The notes below the pieces were generated by a model. The model did no database searches. It was not told the DNA's origin and saw nothing but the letters and a program-made list of their open reading frames with translations. Shown one piece after another: positions 1-55,985 of a stretch of DNA of 64,000 bases. Position 1 is the first letter of the stretch, and each line of letters begins with the position of its first letter. This DNA is from Isurus oxyrinchus (Eukaryota). The position numbers and the translations under genes were made by a program. The stretch covers positions 182,900,001 to 182,964,000 of the forward strand of contig JANJGN010000001.1 of the NCBI GenBank assembly GCA_026770705.1, read 5' to 3'.

Positions 1-2948
1 CACACACCCAGTGCAGCATCCCTCTTCACATCACAGTACAGCATCCCTCTTCACATCACAGTGCAGCATCCCTCTTCACACACCCAGTGCAGCATCCTTC
101 TTCACACACCCAGTGCAACATCCCTCTTCACACAGCCAGTGCAGCATCCCTCTTCACACCAGAGTACAGCATCCCTCTTCACACACCCAATGCAGCATCC
201 CTCTTCACACACCCAGTGCAGCATCCTCTTCACACACCCAGTGCAGCATCCTCTTCACACACCCAGTGCAGCATCCTCTTCACACACCCAGTGCAGCATC
301 CTCTTCACACACCACAGTGCAGCATCCTCTTCACACAGCCAGTGCAGCAATCCTCTTCACACCACAGTACAGCATCCCTCTTCACACACCCAGTGCAGCA
401 TCCCTCTTCACACACCCAATGCAGCATCCTCTTCACACCACAGTGCAGCATCCCTCTTCACACACCCAGTGCAGCATCCCTCTTCACACAGCCAGTGCAG
501 CATCCTCTTCACACACCCAGTGCAGCATCCTCTTCACACACCCAGTGCAGCATCCTCTTCACACCACAGTGCAGCATCCCTCTTCACACACCCAGTGCAG
601 CATCCTCTTCACACACCCAGTGCAGCATCCTTCTTCACACACCCAGTGCAGCATCCTTCTTCACACACCCAGTGCAGCATCCTTCTTCACACACCCAGTG
701 CAGCATCCTCTTCACACACCCAGTGCAGCATCCCTCTTCACACACCCAGTGCAGCATCCCTCTTCACACACTCAGTGTAGCATCCTTCTTCACACACCCA
801 GTGCAGCATCCTCTTCACACACCACAGTGCAGCATCCTCTTCACACACCACAGTGCAGCATCCCTCTTCACACACCCAGTGCAGCATCCTCTTCACACCA
901 CAGTGCAGCATCACTTTTCACACCCCCAGTGCAGATCCTTCTACAAAGCCACAGTGATTCATCCCACTTCCTGCCCCCAGTGCAGCATCCCACTTCCAAC
1001 CCCCAGTGCAGCATCTCTCTTCACACCCTAGAGCAACTTCCCTCTTCACACCCACAATGCGGTACCCTCTTCACACGCCTTGTGCAGCATCCTCTGCACA
1101 TCCCATTGCAGCACCCTCTCCGCACTCTCAATGCAGCATCCTCATCACACCCCCAGTTCAGCATCCTCTTCACATGGCCAGTGCAGCATCCCTCTTCATA
1201 ACCCTAAGTACAGCATCTCCTGCAACCCCTAGTGCAGCATCCCTCTTCACACCACAGTACAGCATCCCTCTTCACACACCCAATGCAGCATCCCTCTTCA
1301 CATACCCAGTGCAGCACCCTCTTCACACTCCCAGTGCAGCATCTTCTTCACACTCCCAGTGCAGCATCTTCTTCACACGTCTAGTGCAGCATCCCTCTTC
1401 ATAATCACAGTGCAGCACCCTCTTCACACCCCCAGTGCAGCATCCTCTTCACATCCACAGTGAAGTATCTCTCCTTTCAACCCCAACTGTAGCATCGCTC
1501 TTCAAACCCTCGGTGCAGCATCCTCTTCATAAGTCCAATACAGCATCCTCTTCACACCCCCAGTGCAGCATCCCTCTTCATACTCCCAGTGCAGTACCTG
1601 TATTCACCCCCAGTGCAGAATCCCTCTATTCACCCCCAGTACAGCATCCCTCTACACATCTCCAGTGCAGCATCGCTCTACACACCCCCAGTGCAGCATT
1701 CCTCTACTCACTCAGAGTGCAGCATCCCTCTACAAATCTTCAATGCAGCATTTCTCTACACACCCCCACTGCAGCATCCTTTTCACATGCCCAGGGCAGC
1801 ATCCTCTGCACATCCCCAGTGCAGCATCCTCTGCACATTCCCAGTGCAGCATCCTCTGCGTACACCCAGTACAGAATCCTCTTGACACCCTCAGTGCAGG
1901 ATCGCTCCCTTCACACCCCGAGTGCAGCATCCCTTTGCACAACCCCAGTGCAAGATCCCTCTACACACCCAGAGTGCAGCACAGCCCCATTGCAGCATCC
2001 TCATAACACACCACAGTGCAGCTTCCCCTGCACACCCCCAGTGCAGCATCCTCCACCTAAGCGCAGCCTCCACTGCACACCCCCAGCACAGCATCATATG
2101 CACACCCCCAGTTCAGCATCCTCTGCATACCCCCAGTGCTGCATCCTCCGCCTGAGCGCAGCATCCACTGCACACCCCCAGTGCATGATCCCTCTACACA
2201 CCCAGAGTGCAGAACAGTCCCACTGCAGCATCCTCATAACACACCACAGTACAGCTTCCACTGCACACCCCCATTGCAGCATCCTCTGCACACCTGGAGC
2301 GCAGCATCATCTGCGCACCCCCAGTGCAGCATCCTCTACACACCCACAGTGCAGAAGCCTCTGCACACCCCCAGTGCTGCATCCTCTGCACGTTCTGAGC
2401 GCAGCATCCTCTGCACACCCCCAGTGCAGGATCCCTCTACACACCCAGAGTGCAGCACAGCCCCATTGCAGCATCCTCATAACACCCCACAGTGCAGCTT
2501 CCATTGCACACCCCCATTGCATCTTCCCCTGCACACCCCCAGTGCAGCACCCTCTCCACAACCCGAGCGCAGCATCCTCTGCACACCCGCAGTGCAGCAT
2601 CCTCTGCACGCCCCGAGCGCAGCATCCTCTGCACACCCTCATTGCAGGAGCCCTCTACACACCCAGAGTGCAGCACAGTACCGCTGCATCATCCGCATAT
2701 CAACCCCAGTGCAGCTTCCTCTGCACACTCCTAGTGCAGCATCCTCAGCACACCACCCAGTGCAGCAGCCACTTCACACTCGCAGTGCAGCACCCACTCC
2801 ATACCCCCAGTGCAGCATCCTCTGCACACCCCCAGTGCCGCATCCTCTCCGCACTCCAGTGCAGCATCCTACACGCACCCCCAGTGCAGCATCCCTCTTC
2901 ACACCCCCAGTGCAGAAACCCTCTATACACCCCCAGTGTGGCATCCCT
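1..2948. repeat. Minisatellite, unit ~24-25 bp (CCCAGTGCAGCATCC(C)TCTTCACACA); homogeneous at left, more diverged to the right
   Basis: Tandem copies read directly; long repetitive ORFs in all three + frames arise because the unit has no stop codons. Confidence 0.97.
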
Positions 2949-5305
2949 AGAGTCATAGAGTCACAGAGCTCTACAGCACAGAAAAAGGCCCTTCGACCCA
3001 TTGAGTCAGCGCCGGTCAACCAAGTACCTAACTATTCTAATCCCATTTTCCAGCACTAGGCCCATAGCCTTGTATGCTATGGCATCGCAAATACATATCC
3101 AAATATTTCTTAAATGTTATGAGGATTTCTGTCTCTACCACCCTTTCAGTCAGTGAGTTCCAGATTCCCAACACCCTCTGGGTGAAAAAATTCTTCCTCA
3201 AATCCCCTCTAAACCTCCTGCCCTTTACCTTAAATCTATGCCCCCTGGTTATTGATCCCTCCACCAAGGGGAAAAGTTCCTTCCCATCTACTCTATCTAC
3301 GCCCCTCATAATTTTATACACCTCAATCATGTCCCGCCTCAATCTCCTCTGCTCCAAGGAAAATAACCCCAGTCTATCCAATCTCTCCTCATAACTAAAA
3401 CTCAGCAGCCCAGGCAACATCCTGGTAAATCTCCTCTGCACTCTCTCTAATGCAATCACATCCTTCCTATAATGTGGATTCCAGAACAGCAAGCAATACT
3501 CTAGCTGTGGCCTAACCAGTGTTTTATACAGTTCCAGCATAACCTCCCTGATCTTATATTCTATGCCTTGGCTAATAATGACGAGTATCCCATATGCCTA
3601 CTTAACTACCTGTCCCGCTTCTTAAGGGACCAGTGGACATGCATACCAAGATCCCTCTGATCCTCGGCACTTCCCAGGGTCCTACCATTCATCGTGTATT
3701 CCCGTACCTTGTTTGTTCTACCCAAGTCCATCACCTCACACTTGTCCAGATTAAATTTCATTTGCCACTAATCAGCCCATCTGACCAGCCAGTCTACATC
3801 CCCCTGTAATCTAAGGCCAGCCAGACTATATCCCCCTGTAATCTAAGGCTATCCTCCTCACTATTAACCACCCCACCAATTTTCATGTCAGCCACGAATT
3901 TACTGATCAGCCCTCCTACATTCAAGTCTAAATCGTTTATATGTACCACAAACAGCAAAGGATCCAACACCAATCCCTGTGGAACTCCACTTGAAGGGTT
4001 CTCAAAATTCCCACATTTTTCATATCATCAACAAGGATATGACTTTTGGACTTTTACCTGAAACCAGACAACGAGAGGAGACAGAATACACATTCTTTCC
4101 TTTAAAGCAATCAACCCAGAGAAAGACTTAAACTAAAGCCCATCAAAATCTTGCATAAATAATCGCTACTAACTACTAAGGCAGGAAGATGACAATCAAT
4201 GCAATTATGCGAACCCATCAATACTCCGCACATATAATGGATTTCAGTTCAAAACTAGTTATGGAGACAGGAAGACACTGATACACATCATGCAAGCCCA
4301 TTAAAAACAATGAGACAACAATCACCTAGGGAAGCCCACCAAAATCAAACAAAGAACTAACCTTGATTTGGATTGAGATAAGAAATTCGAAGAAAAAAAC
4401 AGTATAACTCGGCCAGCAGGTCTGAAGTGAGCAGTTTTTGGGAGACACAGAAGGGTGAGCAGTTTTGAAAGCTGTTTTGGACAGTGAGCAATTGGGAGCG
4501 GTTGAAGCTGTGTTTAAGCAGGGAGCTGAGCCAAGCAGGGAGGAGATCCGGAGGTTTGCAGGCCTGCAGATAACATCACAGCGAGGGGCACGGGGTGGCA
4601 GGCTCAACCGAAGACAACAAGGCCACAACCGCGCCCTCCACCCAACTGAAGAACCTTTGCAGATTCCACAGACCAGGACCACGTGGGGACGGCAGGCCCC
4701 AGAGGACACAAAGAGCGTACCCCAAAACTGCAACCAGTTTACCTGGCTGGATTTCAAACTATCAAGGAACCCTGATTGGTGAGCATGATCCCTGACCTCT
4801 TCTAGTTCAATTTAGTTAGGTTTTGGGGGTGGAACAAGGGTAAGGGGATTAGTAGCGTGATTTCTCCTTGTTATGCCGTGTGTTCCCCATTTTTAACTAA
4901 GTGTACTTTGTAGGTCTGTATAATCTCAGTGTAATCCTAATGTTATAAATTCAGTTGTGACTTCAATAAACTCAGTTTTCTTTTCTTGCATCAAAACCAG
5001 TTGCCTGCTGCACTTTGTCACAACCCCCAAATAAATCCAAGGTCTAGAACCCAGGGAGTGGGAGTGATTTGAACCGCTCAGAAGTCAGAGGTGAAGCTGA
5101 CACACACACCACCACCCCCTCTACACTGGACACAGGCATCCAGTCACAAAAACACCCTTCGACCATCAACCTCTGCTTCCTGCCACTCAGCCAATTCTGG
5201 ATCCAATTTGCCAAATTGCCTTGGATCCCATGGGCTCTTACCTTCATTACCAGTCTCCCATGCGGGACCTTACCAAAAGCCTTGCTGAAGTCCAAGTAGA
5301 CTACA
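2949..5305 (-). mobile_element. 5'-truncated CR1 LINE (RT portion plus 3' UTR), interrupted by a solo LTR
   Basis: ORF 3037-3540 LYKTLVRPQLEYC...RLRRDMIEVYKI...TRGHRFK; ORF 5044-5370 VYLDFSKAFGKVPHGRL; ctatgactct-type tail at ~2949-2970; internal 32-bp tandem duplication at 3785-3848. Confidence 0.95.
3992..5123 (+). mobile_element. Solo LTR (~1.13 kb) inserted in CR1
   Basis: 4-bp TSD CACT (3988-3991, 5124-5127); removing it restores CR1 ggaactccactggacacagg; starts TG; AATAAA near 4965. Confidence 0.75.
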
Positions 5306-5309
5306 ATTA

Positions 5310-6275
5310 CCCCAGCGCACACAAGTGCAGCATCCTCTGCACACACCCAGTGCAGAATCCTCTCGACCACCTCAGTGCAGGATCGCTCCCTTCACACCCC
5401 TAATGCACCATCCCTCTTCACAACCCCAGTGCAGGATCCCTCTACATACCCAGAATACAGCACAGCCCCATTGCAGCATCCTCCTAACACCCCACAGTGC
5501 AGCTTCCACTGCACGCCCCCAGTGCAGCACCTTCTGCACACCCCCAGTGCGACATCCTCTGCACACCTCCAGTGCGACATCCTCTGCACACTTCCAGTGC
5601 AGCATCCTCTGCACACCTCCAGTGCAACATCCTCTGCACACCTCCAGTGCAACATCCTCTGCACACCTCCAGTGCAACATCCTCTGCACATGTCCAGTGC
5701 AGCATCCTCTGCACACCCCCAGTACAGCATCCTCTGAACAAGCCCAGTGCAGCACACTCTTCACACCCCAATGCAGCATCTTATGCACACCCCCACTGCA
5801 GAATCCTCTCAACACCCTCAGTGCAGGATCGCTCCCTTCACACCCCTAATGCAGTGTCCTCTTCACACCTCCAGTGCAACATCCTCTGCACACCCCCATT
5901 GCAGCATCCTCTTCAAACCCCCAGTGTGGCATCCACTGCACATGCCCAGTGTGGCATCCTCTGCACACCCCCAGTGCGGCAACCTCTGCACACCCCCAGT
6001 GCAGCATCCTCTGGACAAACGCAGCAGCATCCTCATGACACTCTCAGTGCAGCACCCTCCTCACACCCCCAGTGCAGATTCCTCTCAACACACTCAGTGC
6101 AGGGTCACTCCCTTCATCCTCAGCGCAGCATCCTGTGCACACCAGTGCGACACCCTCTTCACACACCCAATGCAGAATCCTCTCGACATTCTCAGTGCAG
6201 TTTCGCTCCCTTCAAAGCCCCAGTGCAGCATCTCTCACCACAACACTTACACAAACAGGGTGCAGAATCTCATTG
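5310..6275. repeat. Continuation of the minisatellite (CCAGTGCAGCATCCTCTGCACAC variants)
   Basis: Same unit as 1-2948; shares higher-order blocks with 1845-2040. Confidence 0.95.
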
Positions 6276-9200
6276 TACGTCTGCCCCCCGCCCCCGCCTT
6301 CACATTCGTCTTCCCTCTCCTTTTCACCTTATTTACAAATGCCACGATACAAATGGAATTGGGAAAAACCACAAATATATAACGTGTTCCTCTACAAACA
6401 ACGTGGTGACTGCAAAGCAGCTTTCTCGGCTTTATGTCCCGCACGGTTTGAAAAGGATCTGTTACAAGGTAGATGGAATGTAAATATGATTTTAGAAAAA
6501 TCAGCGATCAAGTTGAAACAATTCCTTTATTTTAAAGGCGGATGCCCTGAACAGCATTGAGGAGAAACATGTCTCTTGTATTGAAACACTGACGAGACAG
6601 GCGGTTGTGATTTATTTAAGGAAGCCTGTTTATGAGGGGGGGGGGGGGGGGGGATGAACGCGGTAAAAGGGCCATAATCTGGGCCCCGGATCATCCCTTC
6701 ACGCGGCCCCCCCCCCCACCCCCCACCTCACAGCCCCTCAACACCACAAATCAATGAACGTTTTCTTAAAGTGAGATGTGCGGACAAAATAAATTTTGTC
6801 TAAAAAGGAAATATTTTTTCGCTGCCTCTCTCTGGGACAGTGTTAGGAGGGCGGGGAATCCCAAAGCGTTGTCATGACAGGGCTGCGGTGGGAAATCTGT
6901 ATCTGAACCCGCAAAGCTCCTTCTCCCAATAAGGAACGAGTCGGCCGTAGTCACAAAATATTTTAAAGCGAGACCCCTTAAAGCGGTTTCACTATTTAGA
7001 CTATCCAAGCTGCAAATATCTGTAGTACTATTCTTGGGTTGATTCCGATCATTTTAAATGTGACTTTTTGTTTGCGATCAACAGTATACCCCTTTCACTA
7101 AAAGAGAACTGTCGAAGAGTTGAATGTAGGAGGCAATTACTCAGGATAACATGTACTTATTTTCTATGAGTAATGCGCAAATTCAGAATGTTGTAAAATC
7201 GCGGGAAATACAAATATTTGCTTGCAATATTTTTTCCAAATGTTTTTGTCACTTAAATGTACTGTGATTTTATAGACGGATGTTATAAGCAGATGTTGAG
7301 GGTTTACATTGCAAATAAAACCGTGATTTATCTGCACTGGAGATTCATGCAGGGTGTATATACTCCGCTTTAAAAAATCTTTACATCTGTGTCCCTGATG
7401 GATAAGGAGAATAACAGCGGTTAAAAAGAGACAACAGAATATGTGTGCACGCAAAGCGAAGAGTATGTTATAAGGAGATTTCTGTGCACTTAAATCCGAA
7501 AGGCGTCCCCCGAACGGGACGCCCCGTCCCTTCTCAAAATAAACTCATCCTCCAGAATGCTTCCGCTCGGTCCTAACGCCCGCAAAACTCAATTGTAAGG
7601 CAATCAATGGTCGTGGAAAAGTCATGATGTCCCAATACGAACTGCAAAACCCTCCGTTTTAATGTGGGTACAAAATGTGACGAGATTAAAGACACTTTAC
7701 TTTCATATTATCCAACAAATGAATAATATTATGGGGTTGTCATAAATTGGCATCATTTACAAGCAACAGCACGGAAGGGCATGTTTATTTATGTTAAAGA
7801 AATATTCTGTTTGGATCAGAAGGATGTCCCCTTCCCCCACAACAAATCCAGTCATTTTTTTTTTGGAGAGCTGGAATGTTGAATCCGCCTATTTCTCGCT
7901 AGATCGAATCGAACGGATTAATATAATATTCTGCAGTGGCCCAATGAAAATGGATGGGCTGAAGGGAGAACTGTTCGTTTCTCTACTAACTGTGCGTGGA
8001 ATACCCTGAATAACACTACTCCGATTTAGCGACATGTGACTGAAAGTGGGCCAGTTGTGGAGGAGAAGCGGCCAGTGTGGACTGCACAGGCTCTCCGACT
8101 CTACGTGGATCGCATCAAGTTGACGCTGGTGGAGAGTTTCAGAGGGTGACAGAGTAGCAAAAACCGCTCGATTGGAAAACAATTAGACATTGGTTGGACT
8201 GGAACCGGGTTGTCGGACTCAGGTCTTGACAGGATTGTCTGGACAGGATTTCCACGCCCTTCCTGACTGATGGTATATGGAGTGAGGCTGAATCAATTTT
8301 GTCTGGGGTGGGCGGGGGGGGGGGGGGCAATGTCGTGTACAAACTGGAATCAAAAAAGTGCTCTGCACCGTTCCAGATTGGACTGGAGCCCGAAGTGAAA
8401 GTGAAGCGATTTGCCCAAGGAACGGCGACCAAAGGAAAGCCGTTGACACCTTGGTGTGATCAGGATGTAGGGAGGAGTGCTGTGAAGCTCTGGACCTGGC
8501 TGTAATACTGTTATATGGTTTATGTAAGAAGCCTGAGCGCAGCAGTTTACCTGAATCTATCCCTCTGATTGCACGTGGACTGGAACCAGAGTAGCTTGCC
8601 TGCTCTTACTTTAATCGGATTACATTGGGAGCGGTGCTGGTGCAGTCTGTCTGACATTCTGCCGCTCCGAATGTATGGGGTTGAGCTGCCAACCTCTGAT
8701 CCGATTGTGAATTCTTTAATCTCATCGAGATCTGCTGTCCCCGCTTCTCAGCTCCAATAACACTAATGGATAGCTCTTATTGGCTGCATTAGACAGATGT
8801 CTCCTCTCAAATCGGATTGCTAGTAATACTTTCACTCGTATTAAATGCAAACACCTCAATTTTCTCTCCCCGCCCCCTCCCCAGTATCATCCACACAGTG
8901 GCACAACCACTTGGAGGTTGGTTTTTATTAAAGCGCGGAGAGCAGTTCCATACAGCTGACTCCATAGGTCCAGTTCATAATACCGCAACTGCTAAACATC
9001 CACACGCTGCGATAGTTGTGTTTTTTTAAACCACTATGCATTTATTGGTAGGATAATCGTTCAACCTTTCAAATCTAAACTTTTTTCTTGATTGGGTTCC
9101 ACGGCATATTCCATGAATTATTTGGCTCTCATATTCATGCATTGTTTTGTATAAAATTTATGATTGAAACATTGTCAAACCTGTTATATTTTAACCGGAC

Positions 9201-15350: not shown

Positions 15351-16107
15351 GAGATGTTTATTGAAAGGCCCTGCACAGTGCCAACCTAATATATATGAAT
15401 GTCCAAAAGAGGACTGCACCTAGTTTAGAACTAATTGGCGTGTTTAGTCAGAAAGGCAACAGATAAAGCTGTATTTGGGAGGCAGAAGCAGCACGCTGAT
15501 AGAATTGGGGTTTACATGGGCTGGAAGATGACCAGTTAAAGGGCTGCGTCAAATCTATATTAGTGATGATGGCTTAAGCTGAAAACTTCAAGGCAATGTG
15601 CGATTTTGAGAATTAACAATGGGAAGCATTTCAGCTACACAACACCATTTAAGTTTTTCATTATACTTATGTGAAGCACCTTGGGATGATTTACCACATT
15701 AAAGCCATTTAAATGCAAGTTGTTGTTGTTCATCAAGTGGAAGGCTGTAATGGTTATAGATTTATTCAGCTATATACAATACATAGACCAAATGAGAAAA
15801 TATAGATTTGTATTTGCAGCATTTAGAATTACACAGCTGTGGCAGCAATTTAATTTAATGGAAATTAAACCAGTTTTGAGTGAAGATTTTCTCCATGTAA
15901 TGAAATCATCAACCTATTTTTAAAAATGTATTTCCAATCTTGCTACATAAAGCTCGCAGAGAAAGTCTTCTCTCGTTTAAGAATATGTTGAAGTTAGTTA
16001 ATTAGCCCCATTCAAGCAATATCACAGGACTGTGCTACAATTTTGTGTAGTTCCAATAAAAGCCTTTATGATGAAAGCCTTTTTTTCCCCAATTGTAGAT
16101 ATGTGTA

Positions 16108-16338
16108 AAACAAAAACAGAATTACCTGGAAAAACTCAGCAGGTCTGGAAGCATTGGTGGAGAAGAAAAGAGTTGACGTTTCGAGTCCCCATGACCCTGA
16201 GTTCTTTTGAAGGGTCATGAGGACTCGAAACGTCAACTCTTTTCTTCTCCGCCAATGCTGCCAGACCTGCTGAGTTTTTCCAGGTAATTCTGTTTTTGTT
16301 TCGGATTTCCAGCATCCGCAGTTTTTTGTTTTTATCTC
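16108..16338. mobile_element. Palindromic Penelope-like pLTR insertion, subfamily A
   Basis: Two inverted copies of the PLE 3' end; 14-bp TSD TGTAGATATGTGTA (16094-16107, 16339-16352). Confidence 0.92.
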
Positions 16339-16649
16339 TGTAGATATGTGTACACTTGCCACAATGCATGGCTGTTCTGATTGACCCATAATATGTTAAT
16401 TTAATGCTACAAACCTGTATCTAGATCTTTCCTCTACTGAAGCTGGAACATGATAAATGCAATGTTCATGGGTGTTACTATTAAATATGTTAGGTTTAAT
16501 ATTGTTCAAGGTTGCACTGTTTTTAGAGTATGGGCTCTAGCACATTGAGGACTTGGAGACACATTTTAGACTGTTGGAGGCAAAATCTGCCTCAGAGCCC
16601 TGAGAATAATAATGCTGTTTGGCTTCATATATTCACAACATTACATTTG

Positions 16650-20254: not shown

Positions 20255-21032
20255 AACCGACAATTCCCGTGGCGGCTTTTGGGGAACCATTCAGCAAGGT
20301 GCTCGTGGACTGTGTGGAGCCCCTCCCAAAACAAAAGGGGGCCACCAGTATATCCTTACCATCATATACGTGGCTCCCTGCTGTCCAGAGGCTGTTCCCC
20401 TGAGAACCATATCTGCCAAAACAGTGATTGGGAATGAACCCACTTCTTTACCAGGTATGGTCTGCCCACCAAGATCCAGTCGTATCAGGGCTCAAATTTC
20501 ATGTCCAAAATATTCCAGGAAGTCATGGGTAACCTGGGTATGACCCAGCTGAAGTCTTCAGTGTATCACCTGCAGTCACAGGGGGCACTAGGATGGTACC
20601 ACCAGACCCTAAAAACAATGATCATGGCATACTGCCATGAGTATCCCTATGACTGGGATAAAGGACGAAGTTTTCTTCTGTTCACTGCCAGAGACTCACT
20701 CAATGAGTCCACCGATTTTACTCCATTTGAAAAAGTTTATGGGCACCAAGTGCCAGGGCCTCTGAACCTAATCAAGGAGAGGTTTTTTGAACAGAAGGAG
20801 GAAGTCTCCATGTAGACTATGTAACAGTGTTCCAGGAGTGACTCATGAGAGCCAGTGAACACTTGAAAATCTCCCAGACATCTGTGAAAAAACAGGCAGA
20901 TAAACATGCTAGAGCACAAACCTTTCAGGAGACTATGTGTTAGTGCTCCTACGAATATCAGATGAACCTTTAAAAGCATGGTTCAGTAGCCCGTACAGAG
21001 TAGCAATGAAGCCAGGGGAAGTAAACTATCTA

Positions 21033-22178
21033 CAGAATTACCTGGAAAAACTCAGCAGGTCTGGCAGCATCGGCGGAGAAGCAAAGAGTTGACGTTTCGA
21101 GTCCTCATGACCCTTCGACAGAACTTGATTTTGAGTCCAAGAAAGAGTTGAAATATAAGCTGGTTTAAGGTGTGTGTGTTGTGGGGGAGGAGAGAGAGAG
21201 AGAGACAGAGGTGCTTGTGTAGACAAACAAGCAGTGATAGAAGCAGATCATCAAAAGATGTCAGTGACAATGGTGCAAAAGAACACATAGGTGTTAAAGT
21301 TAAAGTTGGTGATATTATCTAAACGAATGTGCTAATTAAGAATAGATGGTAGGGCACTCAAGGTACAGCTCTAGTGGGGGTGGGGGGAGCATAAAAGATT
21401 TTAAAATATTTAAAAATAATGGAAATAGGTGGGAAAAGAAAAATCTATAAAATTTATAGGGAAAAAAAAGGGAAAAAAGGGGGAAACAGAAAGGGGGTGG
21501 GGATGGGGGAGGGAGCTCACGACCTAAAGTTATTGAATTCAATATTCAGACCTTACAGCCTTCCGGTCTGAATATTGAATTCAATAACTTTAGGTCGGAA
21601 GGCTGTAAGGTCTGAATATTGAATTCAATAACTTTAGGTCGTGAGCTCCCTCCCCCATCCCCACCCCCTTTCTGTTTCCCCCTTTTTTCCCCTTTTTTTT
21701 TCCCTATAAATTTTATAGATTTTTCTTTTCCCCCCTATTTCCATTATTTTTAAATATTTTAAAATCTTTTATGCTCCCCCCACCCCCACTAGAGCTGTAC
21801 CTTGAGTGCCCTACCATCTATTCTTAATTAGCACATTCGTTTAGATAATATCACCAACTTTAACTTTAACACCTATGTGTTCTTTTGCACCATTGTCACT
21901 GACATCTTTTGATGATCTGCTTCTATCACTGCTTGTTTGTCTACACAAGCACCTCTGTCTCTTTCTCTCTCTCCTCCCCCCCCCCACACACACACCTTAA
22001 ACCAGCTTATATTTCAACTCTTTCTTGGACTCGAAATCAAGTTCTGTCGAAGGGTCATGAGGACTCGAAACGTCAACTCTTTTCTTCTCCGCCGATGCTG
22101 CCAGACCTGCTGAGTTTTTCCAGGTAATTCTGTTTTTGTTTTGGATTTCCAGCATCCGCAGTTTTCTTTGTTTTCATC
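21033..22178. mobile_element. ~1.15 kb palindromic Penelope-like insertion, subfamily A
   Basis: Near-identical inverted arms 21033-21552 and 21609-22133; 15-bp TSD GAAGTAAACTATCTA (21018-21032, 22179-22193). Confidence 0.95.
22040..22078 (+). ncRNA. Minimal type I hammerhead-like motif in the PLE pLTR, with non-canonical core
   Basis: agtt-CTGTCGA-a-gggtc/atgag/gactc-GAAA-cGTC-aact: stem I agtt/aact, stem II hairpin, GUC triplet; further copies near 16200, 21090(-), 23810(-), 27070(-), 28505, 53815(-). Confidence 0.6.
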
Positions 22179-23742
22179 GAAGTAAACTATCTAACTGACA
22201 CCCCAGATCAGGGGAAAAAAGCAATGGCTGTGTCATGTTAACGTGATAAACCTATAAGGAAATAAGCAGGTAACAGTCTGTTCCAATGCCAAAAGTAGCA
22301 GTGGGGATGAATTGGAGGGGGACATAGGTGAGGCCCACATTGTACGCGCCCCCCCCCCACCACCCCTCACTACCTGACCAACCAACACCGAGATACTAGC
22401 AAGCATAGACTCCTTATTCACCAACCTAAGTGTAGAACAGTGAGGAGACTGGATGATGCTGCTCACTGCATTTAACAGCTTATGCAGAGACAAGCCAGGC
22501 TGCGCCACACTAGCTCTACATGATGTGGATGTGGGAGAGATCCCTCCCATAATCCAACATGCCTATCATCTAGGCCCGAAAAGTTGGCCTAGGTTTGGGA
22601 GGAGATTAACTACATGCTGGAGCAACAACTAATAGAGCCTAGCAGCAGTAGCTGGAGACCCTCAGTGTCCCCCAGCTACCTTTCAAAGGCTGATGAGCCA
22701 GGTAGTGGCAGGTTTATCCAATTGTGTATTGTACCTAGATGACCCCCTAGTGTACAGGAACACCTGGGAAACTCACTTAACAACTGGAAGCCCTCTTCCA
22801 GAAAGTACAGTCAGCTGACCTAGTGGTCAATCTTGCAAAGAGTGAGTTCGCTAAGGCTCAGGTGACCTATCTAGGACACGTAGTGTGTCAAGGACAAACA
22901 CTGTCCAGAGCTGCAAAGGTACAAGCAGTGGCACAGTCCCCCATTCCCACAAATAAACTGGAAATCATGAGGTTCTTGGGTATGTGTGGGTTCTACCATA
23001 AGTTTGTCCCAAACTTCAGCACAGTAGCCACCCCACTGACAGGCCTACTACAGAAAAAAAACAAAGGTAGTATGCACTGAGAAATGCCAGACAGCTTTCG
23101 AAAAGCTGATATTCATTTTAATAGGTGAGCCTGTGCTTGCAGCTCTGAAATTTAACCAAGCATTTAAAGTAGCCATTGATGCGAGTAACATTCGGCAATG
23201 GGCTCAGGAATAGAGACATCAATCTGGTACTTCTCCAAAAAATTAAACAAGTATCAGAAACAGTACCACACATTGGAGAAGGAAACCGTCGGTGTGTTAT
23301 TGGCTCTCAAACAACTTGAGCTATATGTCTGAAATAGATACAGAGAGATCACAGTCTGTACTGACCATAACCTGTTAACTGTTGTGGAAAAGTTTAAGAT
23401 CCAGAATGCCAGGTTATTCCATTGGGGTTTGTTTCTCCAAGTGTAACACCTGAAAATCACTTACGTTGCCGGGAAATCAAATATGAATGCAGATGCCCTG
23501 TCCAGAACTTAAAGAGACCCAGTTAGAACTGAAAAGATAATATTGACCAAAGCTAGGAGAATGGAGAATGAATGAGTGTGTATGCGTGTGTGCATGTGCG
23601 TGTGCATCTGTTCAGTTCATTCGTGATGCAGGACAAGTGTCATGAAAATCCAATTACTGCCACAAATTATCTATTGGCATATTAAATTTTTTAAAGGAAG
23701 ACTTGTGTGTTTTTAGGGAAATACATGCAAGGACACTGAGCA

Positions 23743-26700
23743 AAACAAAAATAAAAATTCCTGGAAAAACTCAGCAGGTCTGATAGCATCTGCGGAGAGG
23801 AACACAGTTAATGTTTTCAGTCCATATGACTCTTCAACAGAACTAAGGAAAAATAGAAGAGACGTGAAATATAAGCTGGTTTAAGGGGGGTGGGACAGGT
23901 AGAGCTGGATAGAGGGCCAGTGATAGGTGGAGATTGCCAAAGGATGTCATAGACAAAAGGACAAAGAGGTGTTGACGGTGGTGATATTAGCTAAGGAATG
24001 TGCTAATAGATGACATTAAGGGTAGAAAGCAGGACAAGCAAGGTACACCCTAGTGGGGGTGGGGTGGGGTGGGGGGAAGGGATTGAAATAGGCTAAAAGA
24101 TAGAGATAAAACAATGGATGGAAATACATTTAAAAATAATGGAAATAGGTGGGAAAAGAAAAATCTATATAAATTATTGGAAAAAAGAGGGATCAGAAAG
24201 GGGATGGGAATGGAGGAGAGAGTTCATGATCTAAAATTGTTGAACCCAATATTCAGTCCGGAAGGCTGTAAAGTGCCTAGTCGGAAGATGAGGTGCTGTT
24301 CCTCCAGTTTGTGTTGAGCTTCACTGGAACAATGCAGCAGGCAAGAATGGACATGTGGGCATGAGAGCAGGGTGGGGTGTTGAAATGACAAGCGACAGGG
24401 AGGTCTGGGTCATGTTTGTCGACAGACCAAAGGTATTCTGCAAAGCAGGCACCCAGTCTGTGTTTGGTCTCTCCAATGTAGAGGAAAGCAGCGGAAGCAG
24501 CGAATGCAGTAGACTAAATCGAGCAAAGTGCAACTGAAATGCTGCTTCACTTGAAAGGAGTGTTTGGGCCCTTGGACGGTGAAGAGAGGGGAAGTAAAGG
24601 GGCATGTGTTGCACTTTCTGTGGTTGCATAGGAAGGTGCCGTGGGAGGGGGTTGAGGTGTAGGGGGTGATGGAGGAGTGGACCAGGGTGTCCTGGAGGGA
24701 ATGATCCCTGCGGAATGCCGCTGCGGCGGTGAAGGGAAGATGTGTTTGGTGGTGGCATCACGCTGGAGTTGGCGGAAGTGTCGGAGGATGATCCTTTGAA
24801 TGCAAAGGCTGGTGGGGTGATAAGTGAGGACAAGGCGGACCCTATTATGGTTCTGAGAGGGAGAGGAAGGCGTGAGGGCGGATGCGCGGTAGATGGGCCG
24901 GACACGGTTGAGGGCCCTATCAACCACCGTGGGTGGAAAACCTCGGTTAAGGAAGAAGGAGGACATGTCAGAGGAACTGTTTTTGAAGGTAGCATCATCA
25001 GAACAGATGCGATGGAGGTGAAGGAAGTGAAAGAATTGGATGGAGTCCTTACAGGAAGCGGGGTGTGAGGAGCTGTAGTCGAGGTAGCTGTGGCAGTCGG
25101 TAGGCTTGTAATGAATATTGGTGGACAGTCTGTCACCAGAAATTGAGACAGAGAGGTCAAGGAAGGGAAGTGTCAGAGATGGACCATGTGAAAATGATGG
25201 AGCGGTAGAAATTGGAGGCAAAATTAATACATTTTTCCAAGTCCAGACGAGAGCATGAAGCAGCACCGAAGTAATCATCGATGTACCGGAGAAAGAGTTG
25301 TGGGAGGGGGCCAGAGTAGGACTGGAACAAGGAATGTTCCACATACCCCATAAAGAGACAGGCATAACTGGGGACCATACGGGTACCCATAGCCACACCT
25401 TTTATTTGGAGGAAGTGAGAGGAGTTTAAGGAGAAATTGTTCAGTGAGAGAACAAGCTTAGCCAGACGGAGGAGTGTAGTGGTGGATGGGGATTGTTCAG
25501 GCCTCTGTTCAAGGAAGAAGCGGAGTACCCTCAGACCATCCCGGTGGGGGTTGGAGGTGTAGAGGGATTGGACATCCTTGTTGAAGAGGAGGCGGTTGGG
25601 GCCAGGGAACTGGAAATTGTTGATATGATGGAGGGCGTCAGAGGAATCGCGGATGTAGGTGGGAACGGACTGGACAAGGGGAGAGAGAATGGAGTCAAGA
25701 TAGCAAGAAATGAGTTCCAGGAAAAGGGTGACACGATTGGTCTGCCAGGACAGTCCTGTTTGTGGATTTCGGGTAGGAGTTAGAAGCGGGCTGTGAGGTT
25801 GGAAGGAAGATCTCCAGAGGAGATGAGGTCCGTGACAGTCCTGGAAACAATGGCTTGATGTTCAGTGGTGGGGTCATGGTCCAGGGGGAGGTAGGAGGAA
25901 ATATCTGTGAGTTGACGCTCAGCCTCTACGAGGTAGTTGTCAGTGCGCCTGACAACAACAGCACCACCCTTGTCAGCAGGTTTGATGACAATGTCAGGGT
26001 TAGACCTGAGAGAACGGAGTGCAGCAAGTTCATAGAGAGGCAAGTCAGAGTGGGTGAGAGGAGCAGAGAAATTGAGATGACTGATGTCACACCGACAGTT
26101 CTCAATGAAAGGATCAAGAGAAGGTAAGAATCCAGAGGGAGGGGTCCAGGTGGAGGGAGAATATTGGAAGCGGTAAAAGGATCCGTTGAACGGGGAGAGG
26201 ACTCCTGCCCAAAGAAGTGAGCATGGAGACGAAGGCGATGGAAAAGGAGTTCAGCATCATGCCAAGCCCAAAATTCATTGAGATGAGGGCGTAAGGGTAT
26301 GAAACTGAGTCCATTGCTGAGCACTGAACGTTCAGCATCAGAGAGGGGGAGGTCAGGGGTATGGTGAATACACAGCCAGAGCTGGGATTGGAAGATGGGA
26401 TGGGGATAGAGGGACAGGCAGAGGTGAAGCGTCCTGGATGGGCGTTGGTGTCGATGAGTTGTTGGAGCTTGCGTTCCTTTGCATCCGAAAGAAAGAGACA
26501 AAGTTTCTTGTTGAGGCATTGGATAAGACGAAGAATAAAATGAAACTGGGGGCACAGCCAGCTTAGAGAAAGGGTGCGTCGGTGCTGCTAGAGGGAGAGG
26601 TCGAGTGTGTTCATATGGCGGCGCATGGCACTGAGTGTGGATCTCAGGATTCGACGAAAACAGCAGTCTGAGGAACGTTGAATGCCTCGGCGATACCTGT

Positions 26701-27242
26701 AATCCTGGGTGGATTTGAAACAGGAGGAGTGGAATTTCAGTTGAAATCCACGTGGGGTAAATCAGAGACAGAGACAGTCACTGAGGAAGGAAATATGGCT
26801 GTGAAAGTGAATTTTAGTAAACACTTTGTCAAACACCAGGAGAGAAATGGAAAGCGATGAAGGTGAACAAGGAAAAAGAGAGAGACGGAAATCCTGTTGG
26901 AGAGAAGAGCAGTACTTCTTCCAGGTAGGCATTCCTTGAAGAGGAGTGGCAGTCAATTAAACACTAAGATAAAAGCAAAAAACTGCGGATGCTGGAAATC
27001 CAAAACAAAAATAAAAATACCTGGAAAAACTCAGCAGGTCTGACAGCATCTGCGGAGAGGAACACAGTTAATGTTTCGAGTCCATATGACTCTTCAACAG
27101 AATTAAGGAAAAATAGAAGAGAGGTGAAATATAAGCTGGTTTAAGGGGGGGGTGGGGTGTGAGACAAGTAGAGCTGCATGGAGGACCAGCGATAGGTGGA
27201 GATTGCAAAAAGATGTCATAGACAAAAGGACAAAGAGATGTT
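23743..27242 (-). mobile_element. Full-length Penelope-like element (subfamily B) with partial-tandem pLTRs
   Basis: Direct repeats 23743-~23977 and ~27002-27242; 11-bp TSD GACACTGAGCA (23732-23742, 27243-27253). Confidence 0.95.
24224..26932 (-). pseudogene. PLE RT plus GIY-YIG endonuclease ORF, frameshifted
   Basis: MPTWKKYC..., IVIKPADKGGAVVV, AMGTRMVPSYACLFM, LRYIDD, HYKPTD, VYCIRC...YIGETK. Confidence 0.92.
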
Positions 27243-28224: not shown

Positions 28225-30558
28225 CAGTCCTTGTGAAGACAATGTCCCTCCATCATGTGTGGCACTACCACTGTGCCAAATGGAATAGATTCAGAACAGA
28301 AGTAGCAGCTGAAAAGCAGGCATCCATACTGCAAAAGCTCTGGGACCTGATACCATTCCGGCAATAGTTCTGAAGGCTTGTGCCACAGAATTAATTGTGG
28401 CCGAAGCCAAGCTGTTTCAGTGTGGCTACATCACTGGCATCTACCTGACAATTTAGAAAATTGCCCAGGTATGCACTGTGGGCTATCAGAAGCAGCAGGG
28501 TTGTATTCTGTTGAAGGGTCATGAGGACTTGAAACGTCAACTCTTTTCTTCTCTGCCGATGCTGCCAGACCTGCTGAGTTTTTCCAGGTAATTCTGTTTT
28601 TGTTTTGGATTTCCAGCATCCGCAGTTTTTTGTTTTTATATATATATATCAGATAGACAGAGCTAAGCAATCCCACAACCAATGGATTAGACAAAGCTCT
28701 GTGGTTCTCCTGCATCCAGGAATGTGAATGGTGGTGGACAGTTAAGCAACTAACTGGAGAAGGAGGCTCCACAAATATCCCCATCCACAATGATGGGGGA
28801 GCCAAGCACATCAGCACAAAAGGCAAGACTGAAGCATTTGTAACCATCTTCAGCCAGAAGTGCCGAGTGGGTGATCTATCACGGCTTCCTCCAGCCCCCA
28901 GCATCACAGATGCCAATGTTCAGCCAATTCAACTCACTCCGTGCGATATGAAGATACGGCTGAAGACACTGGATACTGCAAAAACTATGGCCCCTGATAA
29001 CATTCTGGCAATAGTTATGAAGACTTCTGCCCCAGAATTAACTGCAGCCCAAGCCAAGCTGTTCCATTACTGCTGCAACACTGGCATCTACCTGACAATG
29101 TAGAAAATTGTCCAGGTATGCACTGTCTACAAAAAATGGGAGAAATCAATCCAGCTAATTACCACCACATCAGCCTCCTCATGATCAGCAGCAAAATGTT
29201 GTAAGGTGTCATTGACAGCGCTACCAAGCATCAGTTACACTGGGATAACATGCCACTGATGCCACTCAGCTCCTGGCCTCATTACAGCTTCGGTTCAAAC
29301 ATGGACTAAAGACTCAAGTGGGGAGGTGAGAGTGACTGACCATTGACATCAAGGCAGCATTTGACCCAGTGTGGTGTCAAGGGTCACTGGCAAAATTGAA
29401 GCCAGCAGGAATCAGGGGGAGAAATCTCCACTGGTTTGTGTCATACCTTGCGCAAATTAAGATTATTGTGGCTGATAGAGATCAATCATCTCAGTCCCAG
29501 GACAATGCTGCAGGAGTTTCTCAGGAGAGTGTCGTAAGCCCAACCATCTTCAGCTGCTTCAACAATGACTTTCCCTTCATCACAAGGTCAGAAGTGGAAA
29601 TGTTCACTGATGGCTGCACAGTGTTCTCTACCATTTGCAACTTCTCAGATGTTGAAGCAGTGCATATCCGTATGCAGTAAGATCTGGGCAACATTCAGGC
29701 TTGAGCTGATAAGTGGCAAGTAATATTCAGCCATGATCTTAATGAATGGTAGAGCAGGCTGCTCCTGCTCCTATGTTTCTATATTCCTATTTGCTTCATA
29801 CAAGTGCAAGACGATTACTATCTCCAACAATAGAGAGAATCTAACCATTTCCCCTTGACATATGGCACTGCAAAAACTCACCATGGGTCCTTCAACAGCA
29901 CCATCCAAACCCACGACCTCCACCAACTAGAAGGTGACGGTGGCTGTAAGAGCAGGTCAGAGGCTGGGAATTCTGAGGTGAGTAACTCACTTCCTGACTC
30001 CCCAAGGCCAATCCACCATCTCCAAGGCACAAGTGAGGATTGTAATGGAATATTCTCCACTTACCTAGATGTGTGCAGCTCCAACAACACTTAAGAAACT
30101 CGACACCATCCAGGACAAAGCAGCTGCTATGTTTGCATCCCATCCAACAACTTAAACACTCACTCCCTCCACCACTGATTCACAGTGGCAGCAGTGTGTA
30201 CCATATACAAGATGCACTGCAGCAACTCAGCAAGCCTCCTTCGAGAGCACCTTCCAAACCTTTGATCTCTACCACCTAGAAGGACAAGGGCAGCAGATGC
30301 AAGGAAACACCACTTACTGCACATTCTACTCCAAGCCAGAGATCATCGTGACTTGGAACTATATTGCTGTTCCCTCAATGTTGCTGGATTAAAATCCTGG
30401 AATTCTCTTCCGATCAACACTGTCGGTGTACCTACACCAGATGGACTGCAATGGTTCAAGAAAGTGGTTCACCATCACATTCTCAAGGACAATTAGGGAT
30501 GGGCAATAAATGTTAACCTTGCTAGCGACACCCACATCCCATGAAAGAATAAAAAAAC
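28225..30558 (+). mobile_element. Decayed CR1/L2-group LINE (RT plus 3' end)
   Basis: KTMAPDNILA, DIKAAFD, GVSQESVVSPTIFSCFNND, MFTDGC; tail gggatgggcaataaatg...cccacatcccatgaaagaataaaa. Confidence 0.85.
28500..28645 (+). mobile_element. PLE pLTR fragment, subfamily A
   Basis: ctgttgaagggtcatgaggacttgaaacgtcaactc...cagcatccgcagttttttg matches the other PLE ends. Confidence 0.9.
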
Positions 30559-33957: not shown

Positions 33958-34150
33958 CAACAAAAACAAAAATAACTGAAAAAACTCAGCAGGTCTGACA
34001 GCATCTGCGGAGAGGAACACTGCTGACGTTTTGACTCGTAACCGTCAACTGTGTTCCTCTCCACAGGTGCTGTCAGACCTACTGAGTTTTTCTAGCTACT
34101 TTTGTTTTTGTTTCGGATTTCCAGCATCCGCAGTGTTTTGCTTTTCTCCT
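33958..34150. mobile_element. Palindromic PLE pLTR insertion, subfamily B
   Basis: Inverted arms; 16-bp TSD ACTGTACTGT(C/A)CCTCA (33942-33957, 34151-34166). Confidence 0.9.
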
Positions 34151-42794: not shown

Positions 42795-45700
42795 CATACA
42801 AACAGATGAAATTGGTGCAGAAGTAAGCTTTTCGGCCCCTCGAGTCTGCTCCACCATTCAATAAGATCATGGCTGAACTGTTTGAATTTCAAGTTCCACA
42901 TTCCCGCCTACACCTGATAACCTTTGATTCACTCGCCTAACAGGAATCTATCTACCTCTGCCTTAAAAATATTCAATGACCCTGCTACCACTGCCTTCTG
43001 AGGCAGAGAGCTCCAAAGACACACAACTCTCTGAGAAAAAAAAAATTCTCATCATCTCTCTCCCAGTAAGGTGATCCCTAATTTTAAAACAGTGCCCCCT
43101 AGTTCTAGACTCACCCACAAGAGGAAACATCCTTTCCATGTCCACCTTGTCAAGGTTTTTCAGGATCTTATAGACTTCAATCAAATCGCCCTTCGCTCAA
43201 CTAAACTCCAGTGTGTCTAATCTTTCCTCATAAGACAGCCCACTCATTTGGGGTATCAACCTAGTAAACCTCCCTTGTACCACCTCCAACCCATTTACAT
43301 CCTTCCTAAAAAAAGACCAAAACTGCACACAGGTATTTGAGATGTGGACTCACCAATGCCCTGTATAACTGAAGCATAAAATCCTTACTTTTATGTTCAA
43401 TTCCTCTCAGGATAAAGAATATCATTCCATTAGCCTTCTTGATTACATGCTGCATCTGCATAGTAACTTTTTGTGACTCATGCACCCGAACACCTAGATC
43501 TCTCTACACCTCAGAACTCTGCAGTCAATCTCCATTTAAGTAATACTCTGCTTTTTTATTCTTCCTGACAAAGTGAACAGCTTCACATTTTCCCACGTTA
43601 TACTTCATTTGCCAGATTTTTGCCCATTCACTTAACCTATCTATATCTGTCTCCAACTTTCTTAAGTCAGCTTCACAACATACTTTCCTACCTATCTTTG
43701 TGTAATCTGCAAATTTAGCTGCCATGCCTTCTCTCCCCTTGTCTAAGTCACTGATATAAATTGTAAAAAATTGAGGCCCCAGCACAGATCCCTGCGGGAC
43801 TTCACACATCACATCCTGCCAATCAGAAAAAGACCTATTTATGCATACATTCTGTTTTCTGACAGCCAGCCAATCTTCCATCCACACTAATATGTTACCC
43901 CCTAAACCATGAGCTTTTATTTTCTGCAATAATATTTGACGTGACAACTTATCAAATGCCTTCTGGAAATCCAAGAACAGTATGTTGTAGAATTGGAGTC
44001 TGCTCCAGCTGGACTTTATTAAATGTAAAAACCCCAAAGACTCACTTCATGGACATAAACACTGCAAAACAAAATAGGCCAAACCTCAACACGGAGGCAG
44101 GCTGTACTGCAAGCGGTTAATCTTCAAACATGTCAATACGAAAACCAAATCAATACTGTGTAAAGATGAGAGGACATTATCAACAAACATCAACAACAGC
44201 TAAGGAGAAATGGTTCTTATCACATGCACATTACCTTGAGATCCAGAGACAGCACACTGGGATGGGATCCATTGTTTTGTCAGAGAAACAACATTGCGAT
44301 AAATGGGTTATGTGAACCAAGGCAGGAATCAAACTAAAGAGATTAAGGGTGCTAAGCACTGACCATCCAAACAGAATGTGCTCCAGGAAATGTACTTTTA
44401 TACCATAAACAAGATTTGTAATAAAAAGGCCAAGGCTGTGGGATCTGGCACTGCAGTCACTAGGGAGGATCAGGAATGGTCAACCTGATTCATGGACCTA
44501 CAGCTCGCACCGGAATGACCAACCGTGTGGAAAGTTGTAATTGTCAGCCAGGTTCACAGATTTTGTGGCTGAGAATTAAGGATAGCTTTAAGGTTAGTAG
44601 CTAAATCCTGAAAGGGGGTTTGAGTTGGACCGAGTAAGTTTTAGGGCAGAAACGTGGGGTTTTGCCCATGGTTCTACTTTTCAGTGGAGTTTTATAAATG
44701 AGCTTGTGGTTTAGAGTGCTGTGCAGTGTCATTGCACTAGTTTTGAACTCTTGTATTAGGGGCAGTGGAGGCATTCTGTCAATAAATAAATTTGTAGTTG
44801 TGACTAAACCCCTGTGTCCCTGTGAGCTTGTCCTTTATAAAATCCTAGTCAAAAACCAACAGTAAGGGTAAACAAGTGCTGATTGAACCCCTTACGATGT
44901 CTACAGGCTCTCCTTTATCCACAGTGCATGTTACTCCTTCAAATAACTCCAATAAATTGCTTAAACATGATTTCCCTTACATAAAACCATGTTGACTCTT
45001 CCCAATTGCCTTGAGTTTTTCTAAGTGCTCAGCTATAACCTCTTTAATGATCAAATCTAACACCTTCCCCATGACAGACGTCAAGCTAAATTGCTTATAG
45101 TTTCCTGCTTTCTGCCTCCCTCAATTCTTGAATAGAGGGATTATGTTTGCTACTTTCTAGTCTGATGGAACCTTTACAGAATCTAGCAGGTTTTGGAAAA
45201 TTAATACCAACGCATCTACTCCCTGATTAGCCACCTCTTTTAAGACCATAGGATGAAGTCCATCAGGGCCCGGAGACTTGTCAGCCCGAAGCTCATCAGT
45301 TTGCTTAGTACCGCTTCCCTAGTGATTGTAATTTCACCAAGTTTCCCTCTCCTTTCCACCTCTTGATTTACAGCTATTACTGGAATATTTTTTGTGTCTT
45401 CTATAGTGAAGACAGAAGTAAAATATTTGTTCATTTCTTCAACCATTTCCTTATTATCTACTATAACTCCCCATTCTCACTGTCTAGATGACCAACACTC
45501 ACTTTACTTACTCTTTTCCTTTTAAAATACCTGTAGAAACTCTTGCTATCTGTTTTTACATTTCTAGCTAGCTTCCTTTCATATTCTAATTTGTTTCTCC
45601 TGAATAATCTTTTAATCTGCCTTTCTTTAAATTCTGACCTATCATCTAACCTGCCATTCATCTTTGTGCAGTTATATGCTTTTTCCTTAAGTTTGATGCT

Positions 45701-48069: not shown

Positions 48070-49572
48070 TTCCTCCCCATTTACTCCGAAATATATTTTA
48101 CAGTTACAATTACAATTTTTCTCAAAATATCAAATTATTTACACAGGTAAGTAATTTACAAATTCAGTCTTTCTGGGGGTTTCCTTACGCATATAGAATG
48201 TTTCAGCTTTACAGCTTCAGATACTTTGTCAGGAACCTTCTTTTCTGATGTTGTTAGAACTTCCGGTTCTTCGGGGGGGTACCTGCAAATCTGTCTCCTC
48301 AACTCTTGCAGGTACAGCCGATCCTTCAGACACATCTGTACTCAGTTGAGTTCTTTCAACAGGAGGCATTGATGCAGCTGCGAACACTGGATGAATCATT
48401 TCCTGATACTTTGTTTCTCACCTTCTTATCGGATCTATATTTGTCTGTACCACTCAGTCTTCCACTTACACAGGGTAAGAAAGAGGTCCAGTCACTGCAC
48501 TTATTTCACCTGATAACCACTTGGGCCCTTCTCCAAAATTGTTCACATTTACCATCTCTCCTACGGTAAACTTTCTGTCACAGCAATGCCAGTCATGTCC
48601 AGTATTCTGACTGTCCTGACTCCTTTCCACCTTCCCTCTTAAATTTGGCATTATTAAGCTCAATCGCATTCTGAGACGGCATTTCATCAACAATTCTATC
48701 GGTGTGACACCTGTTGTCGTATAAGGGGTAGTCATATAATGGAAAAGAAAATTTGGCGGCTTGGTTGCTATGGATTCTACAGTTAATTTCTTCACGCCAG
48801 TTTTGAATATTTGAACCACTCTCTCAGCCAATCCATTCGATGAAGGCTGGTACTATGAAGTTTTTACATGGGTGATACCATTGGGGCTGATAAGCCGTTG
48901 AAACTCAGCACTCATAAATATCAGGCTTTTATCTGTTACAACCGCTTCTGGTAGTCGATTGATGGAGTAACTTTAATGTAGCTTGTCAGTTGTAGGAGGA
49001 GATGTTGGTGACTTTACCTTATATATGTCCATCCATTTTGAGTGAGCATCAACAATAAGGAGAAACATTGTTCCCAAAAAAGGTTCCATATAGTCAATAT
49101 GTAATCGCATCCATGGCCTTCCTGGTCACTCCCAAGGGTGTAACGGAGCTCTTGGAGATAACGTTTGCACCTGCTGACACTGCAGAAAGCTTCTTATTAG
49201 GCTCTCTATTCCTCCATCCATTCCAGGCCACCATAGGTAGCTGTGTGCTATGGCCTTCATTCGGGAAATACCTGGATGCGCACTATGTAATTCACTTATC
49301 AATGACTTTTGTCCTTTTGGAGGGACAATCACTCTAGCTCCCCACAATAAGATACCATCCTGGCTAGTTACCTCATAGCTTCTGTGAAAATACAGTTTTA
49401 TTTTGTCAAATTCCTGTTCTTGTGACCAACCCTGAAAAACTTGTTCTTGTACTTTGGGTAAGACTGGGTCTCAATTTTTCCAAGCTCTGATCTGTCCAGC
49501 ACATACTGGTGATGAATCTAAGAAGTTCGATAATAAAACAAGTTCTTGGGGAACTGGAACATCCTCATCATT

Positions 49573-53713: not shown

Positions 53714-53852
53714 TGATAAAAACAAAAAACAGCGGATGCTGGAAATCCAAAACAAAAACAGAATTATCTGGAAAAACTCAGCAGGTCTGGCAGCATTGGC
53801 GGAGACGAAAAGAGTTGACATTTTGAGTACTCATGACCCTTCCACAGAACTG
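53714..53852 (-). mobile_element. PLE pLTR fragment, subfamily A, in Gypsy gag
   Basis: Matches the other PLE ends; 6-bp TSD ACAAGG. Confidence 0.9.
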
Positions 53853-55264: not shown

Positions 55265-55985
55265 CAAGAATTTAACCATCTTTCCTTGACACTCAATGGC
55301 ATCATCATTGCCGAATCCCCTACCATCAACATTCTGGCGTTACCATCAATCAGAAACTGAACTGGACTAACCATATCAATACTGTGGCTACAAGAGCAGT
55401 CCAGAGGTTGGAGAATAACTCTCTTCTTGACACCCCAGAGGAGTCCACCATCTACAAGGCACAAGTCAGGAGTGTGATGGAATACTCCCCACTTGCCTGG
55501 ATAAGTGCAGTTCCAACAACACACAAAAAGCTTGACACCATCCTGAACAAAGCAGCCTGCTTGATTGGCACTCCATCCACAAACATTCACTCGCTCCACC
55601 ACCGACACAAAGTAGCAGCAGTGTGTACCATCTACAAGATGCACTGCAGCAACTCACCAAGGCTCCTTCGACAGCACTTTCCAAACCAAAGGTCTTTACC
55701 ACTTAGAAGGACAAGGGCAGCAGATAAATGGGAACACCACCTGCAAGTTGCCCTTCAAGTTGCACACCATCCTGACTTGGAAATATATTGCTGTCCCATC
55801 ACTGTCAGTGGGTCAAAATCCTGGAACTCCATTCCTAACAACACTGTGGGTTTACCTACACCACATGGACTGCAGTAGTTTCAATAAGGCAGCTCACCAC
55901 CACCTTCTCAAGGACAATTAGGGATAGGCAATAAATGCTGGCCTAGCCAACGATGCCTACATCCCATGAAGGAATATAAAAAAAA
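55265..55985 (+). mobile_element. CR1/L2-group LINE 3' fragment (same family as 28225-30558)
   Basis: IYKAQVRSVMEYSPLAW...LHHRHKVAAVCTIYKMH; same 3' tail. Confidence 0.9.

Follow-up and report, generated by a model that had tools for sequence, protein, structure and literature searches.

Our results identify positions 22040 to 22078 (+ strand) of the window, the whole 64,000-nucleotide stretch of DNA that was analysed, as a minimal hammerhead of type I within the pseudo-LTR (pLTR) of a Penelope element of Neptune/Nematis type and of the youngest subfamily, with U at core position 6 (22047). Counts over the whole genome (4.98 Gb) indicate that this U is the true master state of the young family. 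We see about an even chance that the U6 hammerhead of the young Penelope lineage still cuts, slowly, while most insertions copy uncut RNA.

Structure of the hammerhead and its copies in the window

Stem I of the focal hammerhead is formed by 22040 to 22043 paired with 22075 to 22078; the core, CUG-U-C-GA, occupies 22044 to 22050 and is followed by an extra A, a stem II of 5 bp with a loop of 5 nt, and GAAA. The motif includes an ACGU palindrome, C17 is at 22074, and the predicted cut lies between 22074 and 22075. Everything that a preliminary description had claimed for this site (stems, core, extra A, GAAA, and C17) is present as described; the extra A is a published trait of the Penelope hammerhead (PMC4209133). 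C3, U4, G5, G8, A9, G12, A13, A14, the A15.1-U16.1 pair, and H17 are all present in the window copy; all but the last are unchanged in 11 of 11 subfamily consensuses, across which H17 is U or C. The window copy also has the other traits of PLE hammerheads (an extra base between 9 and 10.1, G10.1-C11.1, stem II, and a short stem I), with U in place of the A6 of the PLE minimal hammerhead, which older sister subfamilies retain. Paired cells amount to 92% in stem II and 81% in stem I, with a stem I mismatch in the oldest A6 group. The palindromic helix III, which would permit dimers, is ACGU in all subfamily consensuses, and its duplex is worth only -1.7 kcal/mol.

Cofolding of the focal motif did not recover the double hammerhead, nor did MFE folding recover the hammerhead (z = 0.40). 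Rfam hammerhead covariance models gave no matches in the window and also missed 4 of 4 sister loci with a canonical A6, so the Rfam search appears to be blind to this scaffold. A loose hammerhead pattern matched the window five times, against 0.85 expected by chance, and none of 100 shuffles reached five; four of the five matches are Penelope copies. The remaining match, at 39509, lacks Penelope flanks and was rejected as chance. A different register, in which the core would read U3-G8 and A6 would be displaced by two, was rejected, since the A6 sisters align gap-free.

The focal hammerhead lies in a single Penelope insertion (21033 to 22178) made of two 5'-truncated copies head to head, which match the full-length unit at 93.7 to 94.5%, with the 3' tail on the + copy. 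Sequence comparison places an identical hammerhead in the inverted partner copy (21087 to 21125, - strand), and 15-bp target-site duplications flank the insertion on the left (21018 to 21032, +) and on the right (22179 to 22193, +). Its centre (21553 to 21608) is rearranged and holds a repeated ORF-end piece, with no clean junction. The insertion interrupts decayed pol-like sequence (20438 to 21017 and 22194 to 23510) with integrase-like and RT/RNase H-like frames, which we take to be Gypsy-like. Within the insertion, an upstream box, a pyrimidine tract, and an AG ending inside stem I (21998 to 22041, +) are conserved; 5' junctions of copies cluster at the end of this stretch, which appears to resemble a 3' splice site.

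An older U6 subfamily is represented by a decayed element of full length (23742 to 27137, - strand; 83% to the young unit), which carries a decayed U6 hammerhead in its 3' pLTR (23806 to 23844, -), in which C11.1, G12, and the palindrome are altered, and a U6 hammerhead in its 5' pLTR (27066 to 27104, -), the palindrome of which is CpG-decayed. Solo pLTR ends hold a U6 hammerhead at 28504 to 28542 (+; C11.1 changed to U) and a decayed one at 53813 to 53851 (-; G12, C15.2, and stem II altered). An inverted pair at 16106 to 16341 consists of a + copy (16200 to 16238) with G5 changed to U and a - copy truncated inside the hammerhead, and both arms of an older inverted pair (33959 to 34146) are also truncated inside it. 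Each of the six copies cited in the preliminary description has U at position 6, as it had stated; in four of them, however, other parts of the motif have decayed, and the copy with G5 changed to U, a seventh, had been overlooked. Two subfamilies, A and B, had also been named as having stems II that differ and still pair. Both do pair, but the difference is one one-sided change (A-U to G-U) and not covariation, and the loop atatg reported for B is most likely CpG decay of atacg.

Master states at position 6 and their history

An exact 35-mer of the young family, in which positions 6 and 7 were free and for which the control gave 0 matches, found 73,232 exact young copies genome-wide, with A6 in 108 and G6 in 71, both scattered. 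A6 is thus about as rare as G6 and can be taken as background mutation in this family, whose consensus is not the genome-wide CTGA that the earlier description had named as contrary to its reading. With a general minimal-hammerhead pattern, U6 was matched 107,692 times (control, 344), A6 10,771 times (control, 273), and C or G at position 6 3,877 times (control, 306). Most of the A6 matches among those listed belong to sister subfamilies that are homologous and share the stem II of the U6 family; the shared stem II fixes the register, and the U6 fold thus descends from a canonical hammerhead.

In an intermediate context, about a third of the copies have A6 and most others U6 (the first 100 listed of 5,990, judged by eye), and in a side subfamily C6 occurs in 36 of the first 100 listed of 1,271, counted by eye (loci L113, L121, L122, L215, L217, and L220). 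This share is far above background, so a master with C6 transposed as well. Exact patterns favour young copies, so the copy number need not be an effect of U6; 560 kb of unselected DNA contained 19 copies with U6 and 8 with A6. At 22047, contigs of four organisms (the fourth represented by one contig) have no other letter above 3%. The genome-wide counts and these contigs exclude a sequencing or local artefact, or decay after insertion, as the source of U6.

A weakly resolved tree was built from 120 columns of flanking sequence alone, using the 120 of 199 copies that have the upstream box. It separates a group of 19 rows, all with A6, from a ladder of U6 subfamilies with a weak support of 78; the A6 rows inside its young groups are mostly rare copies sampled on purpose. 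Divergence of the ORF end from the group consensus is 3.6 to 7.5% in the A6 group (n = 6), 2.2 to 8.0% (n = 11), 2.7 to 4.3% (n = 5), and 1.4 to 2.8% (n = 9) in successive U6 groups, and 0.3 to 1.9% in the youngest U6 group (n = 13). Taken together, the tree and the falling divergence indicate that U6 is derived from A6, by a change that likely occurred once. Inside the motif, the earliest U6 consensus differs from its A6 neighbour only at position 6 and at one loop base, and U6 was carried through several later subfamilies after arising from A6. The suggestion that U6 is fixed in the lineage holds for the younger subfamilies only; older sisters keep A6, and one subfamily spread with C6. A much older family, with canonical A6, has a different stem II of 4 bp (A10.1-U11.1; L258:181-217, L252, and L174).

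Four loci were chosen for hammerhead pairs about 3.3 kb apart, and in 2 of these 4 an intact ORF of 926 codons lies between U6 pLTRs. The 926-aa translation matches RVT_1 (E = 7e-8, above the cut-off) and GIY-YIG (E = 9e-4, below the cut-off), and a CX4CxxC linker can be read in it, fitting the CX2-5CxxC definition (PMC8557442). Adjoining tandem units differ by 1 mismatch in 3,339 aligned bases, and the hammerhead lies on the ORF strand in each pLTR, about 146 bases upstream of the frame and 417 downstream of its stop. pLTR tandems, inverted truncated copies, and a one-sided tail were all seen for the element. It resembles the EN+ Neptune and Nematis PLEs of Craig et al. (2021; PMC8557442) in its single ORF with RT and C-terminal GIY-YIG, its DKG motif and CX4CxxC linker, its tandem and inverted copies, and its one-sided tail of 30 to 40 bases, and it is probably an EN+ Penelope-like element of Neptune/Nematis type, a label that does not separate Neptune from Nematis. 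Canonical hammerheads are described in those clades (PMC8557442), whereas the dominant family here has a non-canonical core.

The tandem copies with intact ORFs bear U6, so transposition continued after the change, in agreement with the earlier proposal that U6 stayed compatible with transposition. By our counts, the U6 lineage is the currently dominant Penelope lineage and the most numerous young jumping-gene family of the genome.

Copy ends, conservation, and the possible activity of the U6 motif

The 3' ends of copies lie at +65 to +70 or at +100 after the predicted cut, and most copies read through an intact motif; reverse transcription would therefore start downstream of the cut and usually read through the motif. 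The family kept multiplying after the change from A to U, so the ribozyme has probably become slower without losing its activity, and transposition probably does not depend on rapid cleavage. If the 3' pLTR were cut quickly, the ORF would be separated from the priming end, and since that end would lie downstream of the cut, a slower ribozyme would cost little and may help. Position 6 would have become free (A, U, or C) while the remaining fold stayed, and the small share of RNAs still cut would give rise to copies beginning exactly at the cut. Cutting by U6 would likely take place only as a dimer. Against a slowed ribozyme, it can be argued that minimal PLE hammerheads did not cut as monomers and cut weakly as dimers even with A6 (PMC4209133), and that mutants of the CUGA turn were low in activity in a mutational scan (PMC9901934), so that U6 activity may be near zero.

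A more far-reaching version, which we hold to be doubtful, is that selection tuned the ribozyme down, in that masters weakened at position 6 (U, C) would have retained more RNA that is uncut and can be primed, and would have replaced the subfamilies with a canonical core. If this were true, no larger natural population of a ribozyme with a variant core would be known; searches for CUGANGA would overlook it, and its ancestor and descendants would coexist in one genome.

The 5' ends of copies bear on whether the motif cuts at all. In a set of 62 unselected copies, truncation falls within the last 51 bases before the cut in 31, of which 12 have their 5' junctions at -38 to -33, the 5' edge of stem I, and not at the cut. 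Such a cluster would suit a U6 motif that is catalytically dead and whose fold or sequence is kept for another job, such as RT binding, a stop or end signal for reverse transcription, or a promoter or splice signal. The 3' ends at +65 to +70 and +100, the two changes at position 6 (to U and to C), and the multiplication of Naiads without canonical hammerheads (PMC8557442) point the same way. We nevertheless hold this explanation, too, to be doubtful, since the positions that vary are those that a hammerhead tolerates (N7, loop II, and H17), core positions are fixed in 11 consensuses, and 5' junctions are in excess at the cut.

This excess was measured in copies that lack the 5' part of the motif and have U6/C6-subfamily downstream sequence, drawn from the first 100 listed of 5,309 and the first 100 listed of 2,088 matches. 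Intact copies with small indels were left out by eye, a script retained 81 of 89 matches in the first set and 43 of 62 in the second, 8 further loci were dropped (subfamily variants or deletions), and one was moved to +1. Among the matches listed, 12 of the 50 5' junctions in -4 to +9 fall exactly at the predicted cut, against 3.9 expected without microhomology bias (P = 0.0004) and 4.2 to 5.5 at a bias of 0.5 to 1.0 (P = 0.0007 to 0.007). The excess disappears at a bias of 1.5 (9.0 expected, P = 0.18), and the data fit a bias of 0.75 to 1.0. Junctions from the second set that are not shared with the first lie at the cut in 4 of about 27 cases, which is not significant (P = 0.15), and two of the counted junctions are identical. 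The A6 family, too old and varied to call, is unusable as a control. We regard the excess as a hint of cutting in vivo, not as proof, and estimate that roughly 1 in 100 copies would begin at the cut. A suspected family without GAAA proved to consist of truncated copies in other sequence.

Such a low share is difficult to reconcile with efficient and required cutting, in which U6 would be rescued in vivo by a dimer, a protein chaperone, or Mn2+, and RT would enter a re-ligated unit circle, the template, downstream of the cut. This seems to us unlikely also because cellular Mn2+ is far below Mg2+ (PMC7151607) and no compensating change stands alongside A6 to U. Still, tandem units run hammerhead to hammerhead over 3,340 to 3,353 bases, the ACGU palindrome is always kept, and read-through of the intact motif suits a ligated circle as well as uncut RNA; a circle model has been proposed (PMC4209133), and Mn2+ restores A6C (PMC7151607).

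Conservation after the change was compared across seven U6/C6 subfamily consensuses (5 to 22 copies each, grouped by eye from the tree). Structure-bound positions vary in 1 of 31 cases, with the pair kept, against 4 of 7 free positions (N7, loop II, and H17; Fisher P = 0.002), and the motif and both its CpGs were kept across the seven subfamilies while turnover was heavy in the adjoining upstream sequence, where 20 of 51 columns vary. Four-fold ORF sites differ at 19 of 149 between the oldest and youngest U6 groups; at that rate about 4 changes are expected at the structure-bound positions and 1 was seen, which is not significant (P = 0.095), and core sites changed in 0 of 14 (P = 0.17). The pLTR stretch at +21 to +49 is as conserved as the motif (2 of 29 vary). 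These comparisons give moderate support to continued selection on the motif after U6. The P value of 0.095 and the decay of many individual copies would also accord with a motif that is dead and unselected and has survived so far only because the takeover by a damaged master is recent, but that upstream turnover beside a stable motif, together with the sharing of U6 by four organisms, makes this very unlikely. The preliminary description had weighed a weak ribozyme against a fold kept for another role; the variation at free positions and the junction excess at the cut lean toward the weak ribozyme.

Covariation, which had been put forward as a check on the stems, is weak overall in a set of 22 hand-picked copies (11 of 500 shuffles reach the score, with 1 pair). 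A two-sided change is seen in 1 of 9 pairs and only against the oldest family; there is none within the U6 lineage, where no compensatory change was found among the subfamily consensuses. A GT donor-like site is present at +50 in younger subfamilies, and the pyrimidine tract and AG inside stem I are reminiscent of the D. virilis Penelope, in which an intron reportedly ends at helix I. No joint splicing this GT to the stem I AG was found in 312 loci and the window, apart from a single near match that belongs to an old family, or among the contig joints listed, the contigs showing presence only.

Relation to known hammerheads and other observations

The PLE minimal hammerhead was defined with an extra base and a palindrome by Cervera and de la Pena (2014; PMC4209133), and the window family shares with its metazoan members the type I form, the short stem I, the extra base at 9/10.1, G10.1-C11.1, the palindrome instead of stem III, H17, the pLTR position, and the predominance of solo truncated copies. 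It differs from their consensus, CUGANGAH, in its U6; A6 is present in 44 of 44 rows of the supplementary alignment (PMC4209133, file 2), among which there is no cartilaginous fish, and the core variant given in the main text is U3-A8. The descriptor used in that paper required A6, so the U6 family would be missed by it. A6 had been called normally invariant, which is too strict in view of the natural A6C hammerhead of phage Bcep176, slow but detectable in Mg2+ and good in Mn2+ (PMC3088659, PMC7151607). The window family resembles this hammerhead in having a natural change at position 6; Bcep176 is a single phage sequence with C, however, whereas here more than 100,000 copies have U6 on a minimal scaffold without known tertiary contacts, and the same genome contains a C6 subfamily and the A6 ancestor. 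The function of hammerheads in Penelope elements has been called unclear (PMC8557442), and U6 is not mentioned in the available portions of PMC8557442, PMC6765202, PMC7229834, PMC11014351, and bioRxiv 10.64898/2026.07.22.740005.

Near-identical A6, U6, and C6 versions in one lineage, all of them transposed, make the role of the hammerhead directly testable, and the intact U6 elements are usable for a retrotransposition assay. Of the exact-pattern matches in this genome, about nine in ten would go undetected in descriptor searches that demand A6. The kind of hammerhead is itself known; the ancestor-descendant series, the C6 subfamily, and the junction test are new. Many variants of the PLE hammerhead were reportedly described by Lunse et al. 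in 2017 and may hold a U6; the literature searched, which those variants lie outside, yielded no natural A6U hammerhead.

A 3-base deletion just downstream of stem I occurs in about half of the second-set matches listed (L253 to L276) and represents either a sub-lineage or recurrent slippage. Identical inverted junctions are shared by copies with different flanks (-25/+1 in L244 and L338; -13/-3 in L366, L389, and L390), which suggests that the motif contains hotspots of fold-back or template switching. Elsewhere in the window, long degenerate tandem repeats at 1405 to 3059 and 5289 to 6560 give rise to Pro/His/Ser-rich open frames, and fragments of putatively LINE-like reverse transcriptase lie at 3037 to 3597, 43525 to 44046, 49537 to 51739, and 55276 to 55878.
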